A stretch of DNA of 64,000 nucleotides, taken from a virus (taxonomy: Duplodnaviria > Heunggongvirae > Uroviricota > Caudoviricetes). Positions within the stretch are counted from its first letter, which is position 1, and each line of letters begins with the position of its first letter. The translations under genes and the position numbers were made by a program. Positions 7,675 to 57,257 of the stretch are shown piece after piece. Below the pieces are notes generated by a model. The model did no database searches, was not told the DNA's origin, and saw only the letters and a program-made list of their open reading frames with translations. Location: the IMG/VR virus record IMGVR_UViG_2571042390_000001. One strand, 5' to 3'.

Positions 7675-7899
7675 ATTAATTTGCTGTTTCTAAAACGGAA
7701 TGTATGATCTGCATCATCGACTGAAGTCATCCATTGCTGAAATTTTTAGTTGATCTTCCATGTTTTCAGGCTTATATTCATGCCGTCGTAGCAAATTCTG
7801 CGACCGGGTTTGACAGCCTGAATGTTAGTGCGGACAACCGCAGATTTCCGATATTGCGGTATTTTTGTGTCCGTAAACCGCGTTACGCCCGAATTATGG

Positions 7900-8000
7900 T
7901 GGGGCGTGATGGGGAGGCTTCGGCCTGCTGGTTTCACTAACGCCAGTCTGTCAACCCTGTCACGTCCTGCCACCTGTTTGACAGCGGGTGGCAGGTTGTT
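7900..8000 (+). ncRNA. Candidate c4-like antisense regulatory RNA (immI type), copy 1
   Basis: Non-coding region before icd-like gene; hairpin about 7966-7995; segments about 7921-7926 and 7935-7941 complementary to RBS region about 8007-8019. Confidence 0.35.
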
Positions 8001-21092: not shown

Positions 21093-21167
21093 GATGGTGT
21101 AGCTCAGCGGTAGAGCAGTTGGCTGTTAACCAACTGGTCGGTGGTTCGAATCCACCCACCATCGCCA
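21093..21167 (+). tRNA. tRNA-Asn (anticodon GTT)
   Basis: Cloverleaf: acceptor GATGGTG/CACCATC, T-arm GGTGG-TTCGAAT-CCACC, anticodon loop CTGTTAA, 3' CCA. Confidence 0.8.
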
Positions 21168-21172
21168 ATTTA

Positions 21173-21259
21173 GGGGAGTTAGTCCGTAGGGGTAGCGGGG
21201 TAGACTGTAAATCTACTGTCATTGCGACTCGGGTGGTTCGACTCCATCACTCCCCACCA
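21173..21259 (+). tRNA. tRNA-Tyr (anticodon GTA), long variable arm
   Basis: Acceptor GGGGAGT/ACTCCCC, anticodon loop CTGTAAA, type II variable arm, 3' CCA. Confidence 0.7.
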
Positions 21260-21263
21260 AATT

Positions 21264-21339
21264 GCCGGTTTAGCTCAGTTGGTAGAGCAGTCGCTTTGTA
21301 AGCGAATGGTCAGCGGTTCGATCCCGTTAACCGGCACCA
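21264..21339 (+). tRNA. tRNA-Thr (anticodon TGT)
   Basis: Acceptor GCCGGTT/AACCGGC, D-arm TAGCTCAGTTGGTAGAGC, anticodon loop TTTGTAA, 3' CCA. Confidence 0.8.
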
Positions 21340-21408
21340 ACACAACAGGTAAGAGCATTTGTAGAGTTCGACTCTCTACCGTGGGCTTTTTCCCGCGATG
21401 CGAGCCAT

Positions 21409-21439
21409 AAATGCTCTTACCGTTGTGATGAAGTGCAGC
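21409..21439. repeat. tRNA-array-associated repeat, copy R1
   Basis: aaatgctcttaccgttgtgatgaagtgc; 3' strand of a long hairpin that follows tRNA-Thr. Confidence 0.4.
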
Positions 21440-21650
21440 TCTTTGAAGCAACCAGAAGATAAGCATCTGGCTTCACAACATAAACCGCAGGAACGACCAA
21501 TAAACGGTAGTCCGTATGGAGAACACCCCGTTGAGGAAGAGGTCTGGCCGGAACCGTAACCGGCACTACAACGTTGAGAACACTGGCGTAACGGGGTCAT
21601 ATCCCAATCTACGAATAAATGTTGCGTTGCAGCGTGACAACCAGTGTTCT

Positions 21651-21674
21651 CAACATTGTGGTGAATGCGCAGGC
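21651..21674. repeat. tRNA-array-associated repeat, copy R2
   Basis: caacattgtggtgaatgcgcaggc; preceded by inverted repeat gttgagaacactgg/ccagtgttctcaac. Confidence 0.35.
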
Positions 21675-21793
21675 TGATGCGCGAAAGACATTGCAGCTAT
21701 TGCGGAAAAGAGCTGTTCGGCGGGGCAATTAAACGCCCGTGAGAGTCTGAAATAACCGCAAGCCGGAGATCAGCACCGGTCGCCACAATAACG

Positions 21794-21880
21794 GGAGAGT
21801 AGGGAGCATGGTGCTCAAGCGGTCTTGAAAACCGTCCCATTGCGCAAGCGATGATGGTTCGATTCCATTACTCTCCGCCA
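21794..21880 (+). tRNA. tRNA-Ser (anticodon TGA), long variable arm
   Basis: Acceptor GGAGAGT/ACTCTCC, anticodon loop CTTGAAA, type II variable arm, T-loop TTCGATT, 3' CCA; position 8 atypical. Confidence 0.6.
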
Positions 21881-21974
21881 GTGCAACATTAAGGGTATTT
21901 GGCTAATTAAGCGAATGCCGGAAGCAGAACCGGATCACCAAATGCGTACAGGCGTCATCGCCGCCCAGTCAGCC

Positions 21975-22004
21975 AAATGCTCTTACCATTGCGGTGAATG
22001 CGGC
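21975..22004. repeat. tRNA-array-associated repeat, copy R3
   Basis: aaatgctcttaccattgcggtgaatgcggc; follows tRNA-Ser. Confidence 0.4.
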
Positions 22005-22171
22005 TAAGCGCACGCGGAACAGTTAAAACAGTAAAGGTGGTCTTTTTACTGGCGTAACGAGAATCCATAAGTGATCCGGCGTTAATTGTTAACTGGTTAA
22101 CGTCACCGGGAGGCGCCCGGCACCGCAACCTAACAGCAATGGCGTTTTGTCTTAAAAGGTGGCTGCAAGTG

Positions 22172-22300
22172 ATGGATTTTTGGGCGTTTGCCGATAAAAA
22201 CCCGGAGTGGACATTATTGTTTCTGCTGGTGGTTGCATACGGGGTAGAGCAAGCGGCAAAAGCCTTACGCGGTTCTGGCAAAAAGCGTAAGCGTAATTAA
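22172..22300 (+). CDS. Small hydrophobic ORF (42 aa) inside the tRNA cluster
   Basis: AGGTGG RBS 8 nt upstream of ATG; predicted TM segment WTLLFLLVVAYGV and basic tail; below track size cutoff. Confidence 0.25.
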   Translation: MDFWAFADKNPEWTLLFLLVVAYGVEQAAKALRGSGKKRKRN

Positions 22301-22309
22301 CAGTAATCT

Positions 22310-22385
22310 GGCCCTTTAGCTCAGTGGTTAGAGCGGGCGACTCATAATCGCACGGTCACCGGTTCAAGTCCGGTAGGGGCCACCA
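22310..22385 (+). tRNA. tRNA-Ile2-like (anticodon CAT; may read AUA after lysidine modification, or be tRNA-Met)
   Basis: Near-identical in outline to E. coli ileX-type tRNA: GGCCC(T)TTAGCTCAGTGGTTAGAGC ... CTCATAA ... GGTTCAAGTCC ... CCA. Confidence 0.75.
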
Positions 22386-47497: not shown

Positions 47498-48091
47498 TTT
47501 TAAGTTGAATTGAAAAACTCTCCGATGTACATTCACTACCGATTGGCACACCGGTCAACTTTTTGAGACAAACTGTTTAGTTTTTCGTATTATTGCCTCC
47601 GCCATACCTATGGCGGTGCAATATAGGTGGCTGAAAAGCCCCCGTTGACTCACGGTGTTCCAGCCTTTATTGCGCCGCCACCAGACCGTGGAACAGTCGA
47701 TGGCGGCTCCGAAAGCAAGGAGTCACAACACTATGAACAACTACAGTCTTTTCCCATCACTCGTCTTCCACCACTCACGCGATAATCTGCATTCTTTGCT
47801 CGCGCCGGGGGTGTCAAAATGACTGTTCGCTACCTCAACTTTCAAATCAAGAACATTACTGGCGGTTGCTATGACTGGTTTGTCACTCTCGGAAAAGAAG
47901 TGATCACCGGGAAGCTGGATGAAGTGAAAGCTAAAGCAATGGCCTACGCCTGCAAGCAAGTCAGGAAGAAATCCGCCAAAGCATAAAATACTGACTGTTG
48001 CGCCCTGGCATTATCGTGGGGTATATTTCTACGGCACCTTAGAAAAACGGGTGCCGGGATTGGAACCCCGGATAATGTCAAAGGCGACACA

Positions 48092-48113
48092 GACGCCGAA
48101 CGCGTCTTTTTTT
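48092..48113 (+). terminator. Rho-independent terminator
   Basis: gacgc/gcgtc stem followed by T7. Confidence 0.5.
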
Positions 48114-48149
48114 GTGTCATGCCATCGCACAGCCATACTTAGCGTTTAG

Positions 48150-48260
48150 CTCAGAGATCAATGGTAGTGCTGGCTGGGCTGCCGAAAGGCAGGCCGGTTC
48201 CCTTTGACGCCGGTAGTTCCAACCCAGTCAGTGCTACCGCCATTGAGATTGGAACCTCAC
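48150..48260 (+). ncRNA. Candidate c4-like antisense regulatory RNA, copy 2
   Basis: Segments at about 48187-48191 and 48200-48206 complementary to RBS region of icd-like gene 2 (about 48280-48294). Confidence 0.35.
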
Positions 48261-52117: not shown

Positions 52118-52399
52118 TTGATTAAGTCATTTCGCCATAAAGGGCTTGAACGCTTTTTCAAGACAGGTTCAACCGCAGGCATTCAGGCCAAACATGCGGT
52201 TAAGCTACGCATTCAATTGACTGCGCTTAATACAGCTAAACGCCCGGACGATATGTCTGCGCCTGGATGGGAATTGCACCCTCTAAAGGGGGCGGACCTT
52301 AAAGGTCACTGGGCAATATCGGTAAACGGTAACTGGCGACTTACCTTCCGATTTGAAGGAGAAGACGCAATTCTAGTTGACTATCAGGATTATCATTGA
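52118..52399 (+). CDS. higB: HigB-type toxin (RelE/ParE superfamily)
   Basis: [14 protein letters not shown] ... [10 protein letters not shown] ... [11 protein letters not shown] ... VDYQDYH; probable TTG start. Confidence 0.75.
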
Positions 52400-52689
52400 G
52401 GAACACTATGAGTCGCATGCATAATCCCGCGCATCCAGGCGCGGTTCTTCGTGAATATTTGGGAGACATGTCAGTCACAGACGCCGCTGCGGCATTAGGC
52501 ATTACTCGCACGGCGCTTTCCCGAATTCTGAATGAAAAAGCAGGTATATCTGCTGATATGGCACTTCGTCTGGAGTCCGCTCTTGGAACCAGTGCCGAAA
52601 TGTGGACCGGTATGCAATCCCAGTATGAGCTTTGGGTTGCTTCGCAAACCACTCGCCCAAACATCCGTCCATTATTTTTCCACGCATAA
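52396..52689 (+). CDS. higA: HigA-type antitoxin (XRE-family HTH)
   Basis: [10 protein letters not shown] ... [25 protein letters not shown]; overlaps higB stop. Confidence 0.75.
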
Positions 52690-52781: not shown

Positions 52782-53111
52782 ATGGGCTATAGCAGACTCG
52801 ACGATAGGTACATTGAAGACGATATTTTTCGTGCGCTGTTTCACCAGGAAATGATTAAGCGGGTATCGGAGTATCACTCTGATAATTTCCAGTACACGAT
52901 AAAGATTGATGAAGTATATCGTTCAGACCTTGCAGCCTACAGGGCGTATGGCAATGCAGATTTGCGCTGGGTATTCCGGGTGCTGGTGGGCCATGAGTCA
53001 GAAATGGAAGAAATGCCCGCAGGGACCACGTTAACTCTTCCTGATGTGGCATGGCTGAGGAACAAGATCCGTGATTACGCAAGCGCGGAACCGGAGATAG
53101 AAAATGCCTGA
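52782..53111 (+). CDS. Hypothetical protein (109 aa)
   Basis: Overlaps start of downstream SWIM-like gene (operon). Confidence 0.4.
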   Translation: MGYSRLDDRYIEDDIFRALFHQEMIKRVSEYHSDNFQYTIKIDEVYRSDLAAYRAYGNADLRWVFRVLVGHESEMEEMPAGTTLTLPDVAWLRNKIRDYASAEPEIENA

Positions 53112-54297
53112 TTTCCTGAAAAACCAGGACGGGCGCTATATCACTGACGGTCTGTCCTCTAAGGACTTCACGCGTATATTCGAGCTTATCAGGAAAGAAC
53201 AAACCCGTAAGCGCCGACAAGCTCACCGGACGCTGACGCCAGGTAGACTGAGGAACAAATCCGCCGAAGATATTCTCAAGTTAGGGAAGAAAAAAGGCGG
53301 CACGTTCTTCACGCGAGACGACCTGAAAGGTTTCGAAAAGCTACGGAGTAAAACACGCGAAAAATATGACAGCAAGACGGCTGGCATCACATACGCCCAG
53401 CTGGTGGCATCCAGCCAGGCAATCGATATTAAGCGTGCAAATAACGCCGTGGATGACGGATCTGGTATCAAAAGAGCTACCCCCGTATCTCTTCGCCACA
53501 ACGTGATTAATATCCGCGTAGAAGCATCGGATATATCCGTCCACCAGCACCATATCGTCCGGATACGCTTTGAAGAATGGGATCAGATGGTCGATGACAT
53601 CGCAGAAGACGATAAATCAGCTCTCAAAATCACTAAATCACTGTGCGCCGGGCGAGTGTCTTTCGATTGTGACTGTGGTCGTCATCAATACTGGTATCGT
53701 TACATCGCTACTGCGGGTAACTTTGCCCTGGCCCCGCCAAAAGAATACGCCTATCCAAAAGTTCGTAACCCTAAGCTACAAGGCGTCGCCTGTAAACACG
53801 TGATCCACTCAATGACGCGGTTACAGTCCGCAAGTTGGCAAATGAGTATTGCTCGTGCACTACAAAAGGCTGCAACGCAAATTGCATTTGGTGACGATCG
53901 CCGCCGTACAACCAAACACTTCTCAAAAGAAGACGAGAAGGAGTTTAATCGCAATCGTAGCAGTAAAACGAACGTTGACGCTGCCAAGCGAGAATGGAGA
54001 CTCTATCAGAAGCGCCAGGCCGCTTTAAGCACAAAACTGGCAAAGGACAACGGCAAGATTGACAAGCTACGTGACCAACTGACCAAGGCCAGAAAGTTGT
54101 CAGACGCACAGAAAAAACGGGCGGCAGCAAAAGAAGCGGCGTTGCAACGTGAGAAACAGAAAAACAAGGAGCTTCAGCAACGCCTGGCCGATCAGTTCGC
54201 ACTGAAGAAGCAGGCGTTTATTGATGCGCTTGTCATGGCAGGAACGCCACAAGAACATGCTGAAAAAATGTTTATGGCGTATGTAAAAAAAGCATAA
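53104..54297 (+). CDS. SWIM-like zinc-finger protein with basic coiled-coil tail (397 aa)
   Basis: CDCGRH ... (37 aa) ... CKHVIH CxC...CxH arrangement; Lys/Arg-rich C-terminus. Confidence 0.45.
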   Translation: MPDFLKNQDGRYITDGLSSKDFTRIFELIRKEQTRKRRQAHRTLTPGRLRNKSAEDILKLGKKKGGTFFTRDDLKGFEKLRSKTREKYDSKTAGITYAQLVASSQAIDIKRANNAVDDGSGIKRATPVSLRHNVINIRVEASDISVHQHHIVRIRFEEWDQMVDDIAEDDKSALKITKSLCAGRVSFDCDCGRHQYWYRYIATAGNFALAPPKEYAYPKVRNPKLQGVACKHVIHSMTRLQSASWQMSIARALQKAATQIAFGDDRRRTTKHFSKEDEKEFNRNRSSKTNVDAAKREWRLYQKRQAALSTKLAKDNGKIDKLRDQLTKARKLSDAQKKRAAAKEAALQREKQKNKELQQRLADQFALKKQAFIDALVMAGTPQEHAEKMFMAYVKKA

Positions 54298-54308
54298 ACC
54301 ACACATAT

Positions 54309-54340
54309 AGCCTGGTGGTCTATGCCAGGCTTTCACTTTT
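54309..54340 (+). terminator. Terminator-like hairpin between convergent genes
   Basis: agcctgg/ccaggct stem followed by T-rich run. Confidence 0.45.
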
Positions 54341-55112
54341 CTGATAAATCAGTTTGCATTTCAGAATACAATCGAGAAATATCAGAGAACAATTCATTAA
54401 AATCAGTACTATAGAATGATGTTTTCTTTATTGCTGCAATAAAATCATATAAATCCTGCGGAGTTTCAATTTTACATTTCCTATTCTCATACAGAGTAGG
54501 CAAAATGTGAATATTTTTATATGTAAGCGTTATGGCATCATCAAACCTTTCTTTCATTTTATCATATTTTTCTTTTTCATCTTCTATTTTGTTTAAAATG
54601 TCTTCCAGTTCTTTTTTTCTTTCATCCAGCTTTTGTTGGCTATAGCTAGCCTCTATTTCACGCTCAGCTCTTTTCTTGGCTCTTTTTGCTAATTTCTCTT
54701 TCTCGTTTTCGTCTGTTTTATTGTCCAAAATTTTTATTTTATAGTACACCTTAGTTGTAATGCAAGATACCGCAAGTGTAATTACTGGTGCCACAATCGA
54801 CGCAATCACACCATAGAAAAACGGCAAGAAAAAGTGGGCAAACCAAGGAGGTAAAATCTCGCCATCAAGAAATTGTATTTTTTCACCGGTAAAAACTATT
54901 GACAGAGTATATAGAACATCTTCTTTTGATTTGAACAAAATTAATATATCTCTCCAGTTAACAACCAGAAAAGATATAAAAATATATGCAAAAAGCTTAT
55001 TAAATACTTTATCTTTTATAACATATTCCATTGTATTCTTGACGGAATCAACAACGGACTCATTTTCTTTATCTGATTCAGATGTCTTCTTTACTGATGA
55101 ATCTGTACTCAT
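54333..55112 (-). CDS. AT-rich membrane protein with C-terminal charged coiled coil; candidate toxin or abortive-infection effector
   Basis: Long ORF in AT-rich DNA; predicted TM segments (FAYIFISFLVVNW; FFLPFFYGVIASIVAPVITLAV); K/E-rich heptads; directly downstream of HigA-like gene. Confidence 0.5.
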   Translation of the reverse strand: MSTDSSVKKTSESDKENESVVDSVKNTMEYVIKDKVFNKLFAYIFISFLVVNWRDILILFKSKEDVLYTLSIVFTGEKIQFLDGEILPPWFAHFFLPFFYGVIASIVAPVITLAVSCITTKVYYKIKILDNKTDENEKEKLAKRAKKRAEREIEASYSQQKLDERKKELEDILNKIEDEKEKYDKMKERFDDAITLTYKNIHILPTLYENRKCKIETPQDLYDFIAAIKKTSFYSTDFNELFSDISRLYSEMQTDLSEK

Positions 55113-55175
55113 ATATGCTACCAAATTTCTAGTATCTATTTTTTATAAAAACAGCGGTCATCCAGACCGCAAAAC

Positions 55176-55535
55176 TCAAACGCCAACCAGGCTTTCCAGT
55201 GGAATACCAAACTGGGCATGTAAACGACGAATCATAGGTAACGTCAAATTTCGTGTCCCATTAAGCACTTCGTAAACACGGTTTGACTTACCAATTGCCG
55301 GTTCCAGATCCTTCACGGTCAGTCCTTGCAGTTCCATACGGAATTTAATGGCCTCAATAGGTGATGGTGGCTCAATTGGGTAATGTTTTTTCTCGTACTC
55401 CTCAATGAGAAGACACATAACCTCAAAGAAATCACCTTCCGGAGTATTCATTTCCGGTTCGTTATCGAACATCGGTTCGACCGCACGCAGTGCGGCCTCA
55501 TAATCTTGTTCTGTACGGATAGGTTTAATGTTCAT
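55176..55535 (-). CDS. HigA (E. coli YgjM-type)-like antitoxin/HTH regulator, no cognate HigB adjacent
   Basis: C-terminal IGKSNRVYEVLNGTRNLTLPMIRRLHAQFGIPLESL parallels E. coli HigA (IGSKSMVSRVLSGKRKLTLEHAKKLATRFGISPALF) as recalled. Confidence 0.6.
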   Translation of the reverse strand: MNIKPIRTEQDYEAALRAVEPMFDNEPEMNTPEGDFFEVMCLLIEEYEKKHYPIEPPSPIEAIKFRMELQGLTVKDLEPAIGKSNRVYEVLNGTRNLTLPMIRRLHAQFGIPLESLVGV

Positions 55536-55591
55536 TAATTACAAAGGAAAGCCCACTTGCTAAGTGGGCTTTTTGTATGTGTTTTACTATA

Positions 55592-55930
55592 TCAGGCTGC
55601 TTTTTTATTCAGGTTCCGCTGAGAAATAAATTTTTCAGCAGTATTGATACGACTTAACTCTTCCTGAACGCGCATATCATTTTCGACTTCCCACAGATCT
55701 ACTGCGGTCTGAAGATTAATCCAAAAATCTACAGAAGTATCGAATGCTTTTGCCAGGCGATATGCCATATCCATCGTTAGCTTACGATTATTATTAACAA
55801 GAGCACTTACGGTGTTACGATGAACATGAAGTATTTCTGCTAACTCGTTGATCTTCAGCTCTAACGGCTCCAGGTATTCGTACAGCAGGATATCACCTAC
55901 GGTCGTCGGTTTTCTGGTTGCCTGTTTCAT
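55592..55930 (-). CDS. higA: HigA-family antitoxin (XRE HTH)
   Basis: TVGDILLYEYLEPLELKINELAEILHVHRNTVSALVNNNRKLTMDMAYRLAKAFDTSVDFWINLQ. Confidence 0.7.
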   Translation of the reverse strand: MKQATRKPTTVGDILLYEYLEPLELKINELAEILHVHRNTVSALVNNNRKLTMDMAYRLAKAFDTSVDFWINLQTAVDLWEVENDMRVQEELSRINTAEKFISQRNLNKKAA

Positions 55931-56000
55931 TTTTTGCCCTTACTAGCGTGCGTATTAAGTGGACTCTGGTCAGAACCCGGTCCGTAACCGGGTATCTGTT

Positions 56001-56303
56001 TTAGTATTTGTGAGGGTCGAGATACAAGTCCTCGGCCTTTCCGTTAACCCACTTAAAAATTAACCTATATTGCTTATTCACCCTTACTGATGAATAGCCA
56101 TTTAGCTTCCCTGACAGTTCCTCATACCGATTACCTGGTGGTGATCTTAAATCCTTACAGGTAGTTGCGGCATTGATAATGTCCAACTTCCGTGACAATG
56201 TCATATGAATATCAGGAGGTATCTTTCTATGTGGTGTTGAAAATTCAAAAAAATCATCAAGCCACGCATCCCTGAAATCCTTTATGTTAATTTTTTTGGT
56301 CAT
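56001..56303 (-). CDS. higB: HigB-like toxin (RelE/ParE superfamily)
   Basis: PPGNRYEELSGKLNGYSSVRVNKQYRLIFKW ... LYLDPHKY; upstream of its HigA. Confidence 0.7.
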   Translation of the reverse strand: MTKKINIKDFRDAWLDDFFEFSTPHRKIPPDIHMTLSRKLDIINAATTCKDLRSPPGNRYEELSGKLNGYSSVRVNKQYRLIFKWVNGKAEDLYLDPHKY

Positions 56304-56465
56304 TAGTCATTTGATCCTCCGTGATGATTACCGAATGCCATAACTATAGCGCACCGTTGCACTGTGCGCAAGTGCATTTTATGAATTCCCCCTCCTTCAT
56401 CCAAAATCACAATCTCCCGAAAATCTTCCTTTCGATACCTGACAGATCGACCTTTGAGGATGCTT

Positions 56466-57257
56466 ATGGGCCGTTTTGACGAATGGTTTGCTGACGATGC
56501 AAACCTGGCAAGTAAGGAGTCAGAACATGACAGCACGCAGAGAGAAACGCCAGCGCCGATTGAAGCGAATGCAGGAGGCGCGCCGGAACATGGCAATACC
56601 GGTTCGGATTCATTCAGCATTCTGGAAGAGCAACCCGCCGCCAAAGCTGATAGCCATGATAATTTTGCTGATAGCAACGGTGGCCTTACTCCGGATGCTG
56701 GCGAATCAGATATAGCCATACTTCCATCTTCCCTGGCTGGCAGAGAACCGACTCCACAGTTAAAAGCACGCTATAACGGGCATAAAGCCTTTAACGACCA
56801 AATCCGCGCAGACTGGATGCTGATTATTGAATCCAGCCCAGACGCGTTTCAGGCTCTCTTATATCGACCAGATGTTGGCACATATGGGGTAGTCAGCGAC
56901 GAAACAGGAGAAGAGTCATTCACTGAACTGGATAACAACCAACGCGAACTGACTTACCAGGAACCTGAAATCGTTTATGTGCTGGATAACCCTGACGGGC
57001 GTGACTCTTTCCATGCGATTGACGCAGACGGTGAGCAGGATGGCTTAACCGATGATGTTCTGATTCTGCGTATTGCAGCAAATAACGTCCCCGTCGGCTC
57101 AATTCTTGAATGGAATGAAGAGATGGTAAACGGCGTAGCGCGCCGCTGGTGGTACGTGCACCGTATTTTTAGCTACGGCACACAGCATGTTGGTTCGCTT
57201 TACTACTGCATACCTGCCAGGAATTTTGATACGACTCAAAACGGAGTGATCGAATGA
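56466..57257 (+). CDS. Hypothetical protein (acidic N-terminal half)
   Basis: ATG with GAGGA RBS; first of four tightly linked plus-strand ORFs. Confidence 0.4.
   Translation: MGRFDEWFADDANLASKESEHDSTQRETPAPIEANAGGAPEHGNTGSDSFSILEEQPAAKADSHDNFADSNGGLTPDAGESDIAILPSSLAGREPTPQLKARYNGHKAFNDQIRADWMLIIESSPDAFQALLYRPDVGTYGVVSDETGEESFTELDNNQRELTYQEPEIVYVLDNPDGRDSFHAIDADGEQDGLTDDVLILRIAANNVPVGSILEWNEEMVNGVARRWWYVHRIFSYGTQHVGSLYYCIPARNFDTTQNGVIE

Follow-up and report, generated by a model that had tools for sequence, protein, structure and literature searches.

Gene content of the cargo slot

The 64-kb stretch of DNA analyzed here (IMG/VR virus record IMGVR_UViG_2571042390_000001), which is referred to throughout as the window, carries a minus-strand cluster of four genes between homologues of the tail genes 25 and 7 of phage P1. 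In order of transcription these are higB, higA, a gene for a 119-aa helix-turn-helix (HTH) protein (higA119, product HigA119) and a gene for a predicted membrane protein, with the name MP being used for both gene and product. Judged by its sequence the window belongs to the D6-like, P1-family phage-plasmids of E. coli. Positions 54000-56400 were 100% identical to E. coli plasmid pB2C_96 (NZ_CP035876), and Escherichia phage D6, itself a phage-plasmid of the P1 family and the sole relative in the phage collection searched, was approximately 96% identical over this region with the MP gene excepted. The gene 25 homologue (53104..54297, plus strand) is convergent with the MP gene and the gene 7 homologue (56466..57257, plus strand) is divergent from the higB cluster, and the four genes occupy a cargo slot which is transcribed opposite to both tail genes.

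HigA119 and MP were singled out in an earlier note, made from the sequence alone, as a candidate new toxin-antitoxin (TA) or abortive-infection (Abi) pair. The coordinates and open reading frames (ORFs) on which that proposal was built proved accurate and the likeness of the 119-aa product to HigA held up. The account which we favor, with moderate confidence, is a different one, namely that HigA119 is an orphaned antitoxin and MP an independent cargo gene.

The upstream half of the cluster is a complete TA pair. The toxin gene higB (56001..56303, minus strand, 100 aa) matched the PF05015 HigB-like toxin family (E=4e-35) and the antitoxin gene higA (55592..55930, minus strand, 112 aa) matched TIGR02607 antidote_HigA (E=8e-30). 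Both matches passed the curated cut-offs (120.5 bits vs 27 for PF05015 and 102.5 bits vs 47.7 for TIGR02607) and the pair (55592-56303) is a full member of the Rts1/Vibrio-type HigBA systems which combine these two families. It is followed by a 13-bp GC-rich hairpin (55546..55574), terminator-like on both strands, which lies 11 nt ahead of the ATG of the intact higA119 gene (55176..55535, minus strand). Directly past the higA119 stop, and ahead of the MP start, there is another terminator-like hairpin (55154..55170, minus strand; GCGGTC-TGGAT-GACCGC, then TGTTTTTAT), so placed that the 63-bp gap between higA119 and MP holds both hairpin and T-run. The MP gene (54333..55112, minus strand) is the last of the cluster and is separated from the convergent tail gene 25 by a terminator-like hairpin with a 9-bp stem (54309..54331).

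Residues 6-112 of HigA119 matched E. coli HigA/YgjM (5IFG/5YCL, E=2.5e-7) and no other solved structure. The protein consists of an N-terminal HigA domain and a C-terminal Xre-type HTH, which is the domain order of a K-12-type HigA, and a match to Pfam HTH_3 at residues 63-115 was slightly below the cut-off. A much stronger match (E=1e-41) was obtained to the PADLOC profile PD-Lambda-2_B, covering positions 1-119 of 402, the HigA-like N-terminal part of that profile. The B protein of the PD-lambda-2 anti-phage system joins a HigA-like HTH to a C-terminal ImmA/IrrE peptidase (Vassallo et al. 2022, PMC9519451). The two loci are alike in being HigB/HigA-derived, in lying on a mobile element and in having a third gene, and differ in that the third gene of PD-lambda-2 is P4-antitoxin-like whereas here it encodes a membrane protein. 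Membership of HigA119 in PD-lambda-2 was rejected, as the protein ends at residue 119 without a peptidase and the A (HigB-like) and C components were unmatched; neither PD-Lambda-2_A nor PD-Lambda-2_C had a match among the window proteins, including the four proteins of the cluster.

Exchange of the toxin gene and decay of higA119

The cognate toxins of HigA119 are the HigB proteins of family PF09907. None was found in the window, and on this point the earlier note was right to describe a HigA-like gene lacking its usual toxin; what it overlooked is that the complete PF05015 HigB/TIGR02607 HigA pair sits directly upstream in its place. Related elements showed what the slot holds elsewhere. In the type-A sister loci (L008, L012, L028 and L030) the order of genes is PF09907 HigB, HigA119 and MP, and in L006, L007 and L029 it is a more diverged PF09907 HigB, HigA139 and MP. 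The HigA119 protein of the window is 98% identical to that of L008 and 97-99% identical to the type-A antitoxins. Beyond these elements the HigA119 family was found on 478 PLSDB plasmids of many Proteobacteria, typically adjoining a gene annotated as 'HigB family toxin' and mostly without MP, and the gap or overlap between the PF09907 HigB gene and the HigA119-family gene is 3-4 nt in the sister elements and in hundreds of plasmids. Because the 98%-identical copies directly follow PF09907 HigB in the sister elements, we regard HigA119 as an ordinary PF09907 HigB antitoxin and the layout in the window as derived.

The limits of the exchange could be placed by comparison with L008, as DNA homology between this locus and the window stops at 56404 and restarts at 55542, 7 nt ahead of the higA119 ATG. 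Between these breakpoints L008 has 384 bp comprising the operator region and PF09907 higB, while the window has an 861-bp cassette (55543..56403, minus strand) which contains a promoter region, higB (PF05015), higA (TIGR02607) and, at its 3' end, the 13-bp hairpin. The swap stripped the locus of PF09907 higB, its promoter, the putative operator and the Shine-Dalgarno sequence of higA119. In L008 a GGAG motif stands 7 nt before the higA119 ATG; in the window 'ctttcctttgtaattaATG' is found there with the 13-bp hairpin ahead of it, and no Shine-Dalgarno sequence was found ahead of the window copy of the gene, which now sits behind that terminator-like hairpin. The palindrome TCCCA-N3-TGGGA, which we infer to be the likely operator of HigA119, is confined to the four type-A loci, where it stands ahead of PF09907 higB, twice in L008 (5200-5243), L012 (1695-1738) and L030 (4203-4246) and once in L028 (4210-4222). 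There were no matches to it in the 64-kb window and likewise none in the other 45 loci.

The E. coli K-12 HigB/HigA (YgjN/YgjM) genes have been shown to be a TA locus (PMC2814082) and a 'higA-higB' addiction system, to which the PF05015/TIGR02607 pair of the window corresponds, has already been noted for D6-like prophages (PMC6799933). HigA119 has the same N-terminal domain and C-terminal HTH layout as the K-12 antitoxin over the aligned residues 6-112, whereas the PF09907 toxin gene, promoter, putative operator and higA Shine-Dalgarno sequence have no counterpart in the window. Lacking the toxin and operator which define a HigBA locus of this type, higA119 is an orphan antitoxin gene and not a TA system. 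We consider it highly probable that it was orphaned when its toxin gene was exchanged for a different TA cassette, and the Rts1/Vibrio-type pair is then the incoming cassette which displaced that toxin.

Of 91 PLSDB plasmid records with the incoming cassette, all of D6-like size, 87 have it at an identity of at least 99%. The higA119 alleles adjacent to it differ at 1-26% of synonymous sites, or by 0.08-0.26 when the near-identical pairs L002/L018 and window/L013 are set aside. As the cassette is this uniform while its neighboring higA119 alleles are diverse, it is apparently spreading by recombination, which suggests a higBA cassette sweeping through diverse D6-like backgrounds.

Loss of the toxin has been followed by decay of the antitoxin gene in many of these elements. 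In 10 of 31 loci (L011, L017, L019-L025 and L031) higA119 is cut at approximately codon 59, leaving a 66-aa ORF without the HTH, and in those 10 loci the replacement of the HTH half extended through the hairpin and the intergenic region and brought in a different MP allele. L026 has a frameshifted higA119. A full-length MP is present in each of the 10 truncated loci as well as in L026. As a rough estimate, only about two dozen of the approximately 91 PLSDB records with the incoming cassette retain a full-length higA119. The pooled ratio of nonsynonymous to synonymous polymorphism (pN/pS) was 0.11 for intact orphan copies compared with 0.01 for HigB-linked copies, a difference which points to relaxed constraint on the orphan gene, although its evolution does not appear to be neutral.

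The same course of events is seen in a second backbone. On a phage-plasmid of approximately 97 kb related to Citrobacter plasmids the locus L048 has the order PF09907 HigB, HigA138 and MP, with the three proteins being 54%, 53% and 26% identical, respectively, to those of the L006 trio. In its sister contigs L032-35 the order is TacA, TacT (GNAT), a 68-aa N-terminal HigA remnant and MP. By this comparison the toxin was exchanged for another TA module, the HigA was orphaned and truncated and MP was retained, as in the D6-like elements.

Properties and genomic contexts of the MP family

The conserved start of MP is ATG 55112, which is the start annotated by PGAP and the position from which all homologues align, and it gives a protein of 259 aa. 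The 263-aa ORF and 51-bp gap which the earlier note described follow from TTG 55124 and hold for that start alone. Upstream of the MP ATG the window has an A-run (55136-55141) which is one A shorter in other records, and this puts ATG 55159 in frame and accounts for annotated products of 275 aa (P0001, P0002) with an N-terminal extension overlapping the terminator hairpin. These longer products are probably a gene-caller artefact.

Hydrophobic segments were found at residues 40-61 (TM1) and 89-120 (TM2), with an N-terminal amphipathic helix ahead of them, and residues 121-210 are K/E-rich (23 K+R, 22 D+E), in keeping with the transmembrane (TM) segments and long coiled coil that had been predicted. 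In an AlphaFold2 model based on 23 family members (pLDDT 76.8) TM2 runs on as one helix from residue 89 to 210 and is followed by a small helical C-terminal domain; an earlier model from 8 sequences was poor (pLDDT 57). Conserved motifs in the membrane part are NW in TM1 and LPxxxGxxASxxxP in TM2.

With a GC content of 0.308, close to the 30% estimated previously, MP is the lowest stretch of the 64 kb (window mean 0.478, sd 0.036, in 780-bp windows). Every MP homologue examined was 4-20 GC points under its flanks, and at least 10 points under in all but two contexts. Since the deficit is present in every host and backbone examined, low GC is a trait of the MP family and not just a sign of recent arrival. 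The compositional break does mark MP as foreign cargo, as had been proposed, while recency of acquisition can be read from it only in part.

A profile search of 1.84 billion proteins returned 86 representatives of the MP family at E<=1e-3 and 26 at E<=1e-10, and a search of genome contigs for related loci returned 0 loci with one alignment and 2 loci with another. MP corresponds to PHROG 8191, which is of unknown function, and to orf73 of D6. Scans of MP and 22 family members against Pfam, NCBIfam, PADLOC and PHROGs yielded coiled-coil noise and this single PHROG, in agreement with the claim that the protein has no match among described families. When the family alignment was used as a profile against the PDB only coiled coils were returned, fold searches with MP gave no specific match and literature searches found no description of D6 orf72, orf73 or the MP family. 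The PADLOC '2TM effector' profile matched one of 23 family members (E=4e-4) and the SLATT profile had no match. Weak matches to Phage_holin_6_1, CD_typeI_toxin, UPF0242, JetC, LmuB and PbeC were discarded, as they were far below cut-offs and lay on TM2 or the coiled coil.

A relative of MP was present in 74 of 5426 complete E. coli genomes (approximately 1.4%), always on plasmids of approximately 75-100 kb, the size of D6-like elements. At least seven MP alleles occur in the D6-like elements of E. coli and Salmonella and these are 32-63% identical over full-length alignments, with the range extending to 26-63% when ten alleles were compared. The DNA flanking the D6-like alleles is 94-100% identical where measured, and the tail proteins are 96-100% identical. 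The variation is unevenly distributed along the protein, as mean pairwise identity between alleles is highest in the TM domain, at 55%, and falls to 29% in the C-terminal domain and 23% in the coiled coil. Taken together, the features described so far for the MP family are typical of cargo on which a diversifying or frequency-dependent pressure acts.

MP occurs independently of HigA119. Homologues with neither an antitoxin nor an HTH neighbor were found in at least eight independent contexts: after umuDC and beside D6-like tail genes on a Klebsiella grimontii chromosome (L003), after umuC on an IMG/VR contig (L053), alone next to dcm/DUF4928 on an Enterobacter cancerogenus plasmid, alone in P2-like prophages (on the opposite strand, between the baseplate gene V and tail-completion genes), alone on island-like contigs, at a chromosomal site, next to a CdiA-like toxin in Kosakonia, and in Buttiauxella. 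It is very likely that MP does not need HigA119.

Several of these contexts provided further observations on where MP resides. The region in K. grimontii (L003; CP067380, 4.72-4.74 Mb) holds D6-like tail genes, a mat fragment and MP adjoining umuDC, HicAB and a Cap4-nuclease gene, its homologues of genes 25 and 26 share 81% identity with those of the window, and it looks like an integrated or decayed D6-like element. In L053 (2676-4633) and L003 (4232-6804) the MP genes, which belong to two different subfamilies, begin 53-75 bp past umuC in the same orientation, and umuC is a second recurrent upstream neighbor of MP besides TA modules. In two island-like metagenome contigs the 3' end of tail gene 25 survives as short remnants just past distant MP homologues (L041, 5707-5790; L043, 5806-5865; 20-28 aa, 64-70% identical), and these remnants hint that MP copies found elsewhere derive from P1/D6-like elements.

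The order HigB, HigA139, MP was also observed on Klebsiella IncFIB plasmids in approximately 55 records. In the Klebsiella pneumoniae plasmid NZ_CP069846 (L009, 3022-4746) the genes are part of a 1.73-kb block which is 95% identical to an Enterobacter D6-like element and which has insertion sequence (IS) fragments on both sides. Because the block includes approximately 51 bp of the 5' end of tail gene 7 and is IS-flanked, it is best regarded as a captured fragment of a phage-plasmid, and we rejected the plasmid trio as weak proof of a mobile three-gene module.

Candidate functions of MP and HigA119

According to the account which we favor, the slot originally contained PF09907 higB, higA119 and MP, and recombination in the lineage of the window replaced higB, its promoter and its operator by the 861-bp cassette with an unrelated HigBA pair and terminator hairpin. 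HigA119 was left behind the terminator without toxin, operator or ribosome-binding site, decaying in sister elements, and at most it may still neutralize PF09907 HigB made by related elements. MP is an autonomous cargo gene of a rare, uncharacterized family which is distributed over phage-plasmids, P2-like prophages, plasmids and chromosomal islands. The layout of the locus, the swap of the cassette, the decay of higA119 and the independence, allelic variability and AT-richness of MP are shown by the comparisons above, whereas MP topology, the route of its expression and its biological role are inferred. The MP product is predicted to sit in the inner membrane with its N- and C-terminus both facing the cytoplasm. 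As no sigma-70-like promoter was recognized in the 63-bp gap, either by a sequence scan or by reading it by hand, we propose that the lysogen makes MP through transcription reading on from the upstream operon, and probably little of it.

An exclusion or Abi role at the membrane is plausible for MP on its own. Lambda RexB, T4 Imm, P22 SieA and the CBASS 2TM/SLATT effectors are presumably functional analogues. MP resembles such proteins in being a small, predicted inner-membrane protein which is AT-rich and highly variable, and it is encoded on a temperate element in a cargo slot outside the late operons and opposite to them, the context expected of this class. It has no detectable sequence or fold relationship to RexB, Imm, SieA or the 2TM/SLATT proteins, and to our knowledge a cytoplasmic helix of approximately 120 residues with a C-terminal domain is not a feature of any of them. 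If MP were a superinfection-exclusion or Abi factor, the conserved TM domain would be its membrane-acting part and the hypervariable coiled coil and C-terminus its specificity or sensing part. That MP is a lysogen-expressed inner-membrane factor of this class is a tentative suggestion drawn from these features.

The original proposal was that HigA119 and MP form a two-gene TA or Abi pair in which MP is a membrane-disrupting toxin that HigA119 neutralizes or represses. The two genes do adjoin each other in the same orientation, both in D6-like elements of types A, A' and B and in L048, the Citrobacter-type element, HigA119 is intact in at least eight loci which lack its toxin, and N-terminal HigA remnants remain beside MP in two lineages. 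A toxin dependent on HigA119 could not, however, persist where HigA119 is missing. MP is intact both in the commonest sister lineage, which has lost the HTH half of higA119, and in L026 with its frameshifted copy, and the contexts without any HigA listed above contradict the pair model in the same way, the two genes failing to show the co-occurrence that is obligate for a toxin and its antitoxin. The near-identity of HigA119 to copies partnering PF09907 HigB, the many plasmids which have this antitoxin family without MP, the terminator-like hairpin between higA119 and MP, and the missing Shine-Dalgarno sequence also count against a pair, which we now consider very improbable. Equally poor are the prospects of a role in lytic or virion biology, with MP acting as a holin-like lysis protein or as an inner-membrane assembly or DNA-delivery factor. 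This would fit the tail or baseplate genes which adjoin MP in two phage types (D6-like and P2-like) and the Phage_holin_6_1 match (E=0.011, 16.6 bits vs a cut-off of 24.9), but in both phage types MP is opposite in strand to the late tail operons, it is present in plasmids and islands and beside contact-dependent inhibition (CDI) toxins, its alleles are far more diverse than the surrounding structural genes, and it is frameshifted in some elements; on this evidence such a role would be most surprising.

Some of our observations sit less comfortably with an orphaned antitoxin and an independent MP. In 5 of approximately 14 contexts, spread over two backbones, a type II TA module lies immediately ahead of MP, at 53-85 bp and on the same strand, and MP follows umuDC in 2 further contexts. 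The TA-then-MP order is more frequent than would be expected of cargo genes without any relation to each other and could mean that the two are coupled in function or regulation. With no promoter recognized for MP, its expression in the lysogen is an assumption. MP is itself frameshifted in the IMG/VR contigs L016 (3859-4634) and L030 (5004-5731), meaning either that it is dispensable and these are pseudogenes or that they contain sequencing or assembly errors. Finally, the pN/pS of intact orphan higA119 is well below 1, and the gene may retain some residual function. Two other explanations were considered. In one of them MP is the output of an upstream stress operon (HigBA, TacAT or umuDC), with phage attack, SOS or loss of the element as trigger; loss of the antitoxin or of LexA would cause derepression and read-through past an attenuating hairpin, MP would act on the membrane, and the TA module would be an interchangeable sensor/promoter cassette. 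Consistent with this, HigBA (of three kinds), TacAT or umuDC precedes MP by 53-85 bp on the same strand in 7 of the approximately 14 contexts, in two phage-plasmid backbones, the promoterless gap shrinks to only 21 nt between the truncated higA and the MP ATG in type C, a hairpin lies between higA and MP in all three divergent HigBA-MP trios (different hairpins at the same position), and the TA type is exchanged while MP stays. Against it, MP stands alone in half of the contexts, where the gap upstream of it is approximately 140-750 bp, and TA modules and cargo genes share permissive slots anyway, with TA modules stabilizing neighboring DNA, an explanation of the arrangement which is at least as likely as coupling. 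We consider operon coupling unlikely. Its furthest extension, in which MP founds a new family of immunity proteins, being a 2-TM coiled-coil effector whose variable cytoplasmic part recognizes phages or rivals and whose expression is wired to derepression of the interchangeable HigBA, TacAT or umuDC operon, is likewise doubtful; if true, a TA module followed by MP would be a modular sensor-effector unit of defense or exclusion with the TA module acting as trigger rather than as killer. The other explanation concerns HigA119, which might be kept as an anti-addiction or anti-defense factor directed against the PF09907 HigB of type-A elements or against HigB-based defenses such as PD-lambda-2, allowing the element to displace rivals or escape defense, and it is compatible with the favored explanation for MP. 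The constraint on the intact orphans, the 97-99% identity to type-A antitoxins, the strong match to the HigA-like domain of PD-Lambda-2_B and the documented use of orphan antitoxins by phages as counter-defense (bioRxiv 10.1101/2024.07.11.602962) speak for it. The lack of a Shine-Dalgarno sequence, the terminator-like hairpin just upstream and the truncation or frameshift of higA119 in most cassette-bearing relatives speak against it; moreover, as the cassette is uniform while the higA119 alleles are diverse, the low pN/pS may have been inherited from recent type-A ancestors and not reflect current constraint. A retained anti-addiction role seems to us rather improbable.

A HigB-HigA pair followed by a conserved same-strand third gene, seen here in two backbones, is reminiscent of the tripartite toxin-antitoxin-chaperone (TAC) systems made up of HigB1, HigA1 and a SecB-like chaperone (PMC5105189). 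The likeness ends there, as MP is a 2-TM/coiled-coil protein without similarity to SecB which persists when the TA module is exchanged or absent, and HigA119 does not have the C-terminal extension on which the SecB-like chaperone of TAC acts.

An orphaned, decaying HigA is a known kind of thing, with an unusually clear history in this case. The locus is a clean and datable example of TA turnover on phage-plasmids, in which a near-clonal PF05015 higBA is replacing PF09907 higB, and the stages of orphan antitoxin decay (loss of the Shine-Dalgarno sequence, truncation, frameshift) are visible among its relatives. It also serves as a caution that an orphan HTH gene and its neighbor need not be a new TA pair. 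MP is the more useful lead. Deep allele divergence in otherwise near-identical elements is the pattern expected of an arms-race gene, and MP is found in moron slots of P1/D6-like phage-plasmids and P2-like prophages as well as in plasmids and islands. This unannotated, hypervariable membrane protein is a reasonable candidate for a new exclusion or defense family. If it is such a factor, this would be directly testable with orf73 in the cultivable phage D6.

Other features of the window were also recorded. A second TA pair, consisting of a RelE/ParE-family toxin and a HigA antitoxin, is located at 52118-52689 (plus strand), flanked by the homologues of mat and gene 26. This pair is annotated in pB2C_96 and absent from D6, which has two tiny ORFs there instead, and it represents another TA-occupied cargo slot approximately 2 kb from the HigA119/MP cluster. 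Rfam matches of the kind characteristic of P1-like immunity regions were listed at 7772-7977, 48034-48244 and 21093-22382 (two C4 antisense RNAs, a c4 a1b1 target and isrK), alongside a cluster of four tRNA genes.

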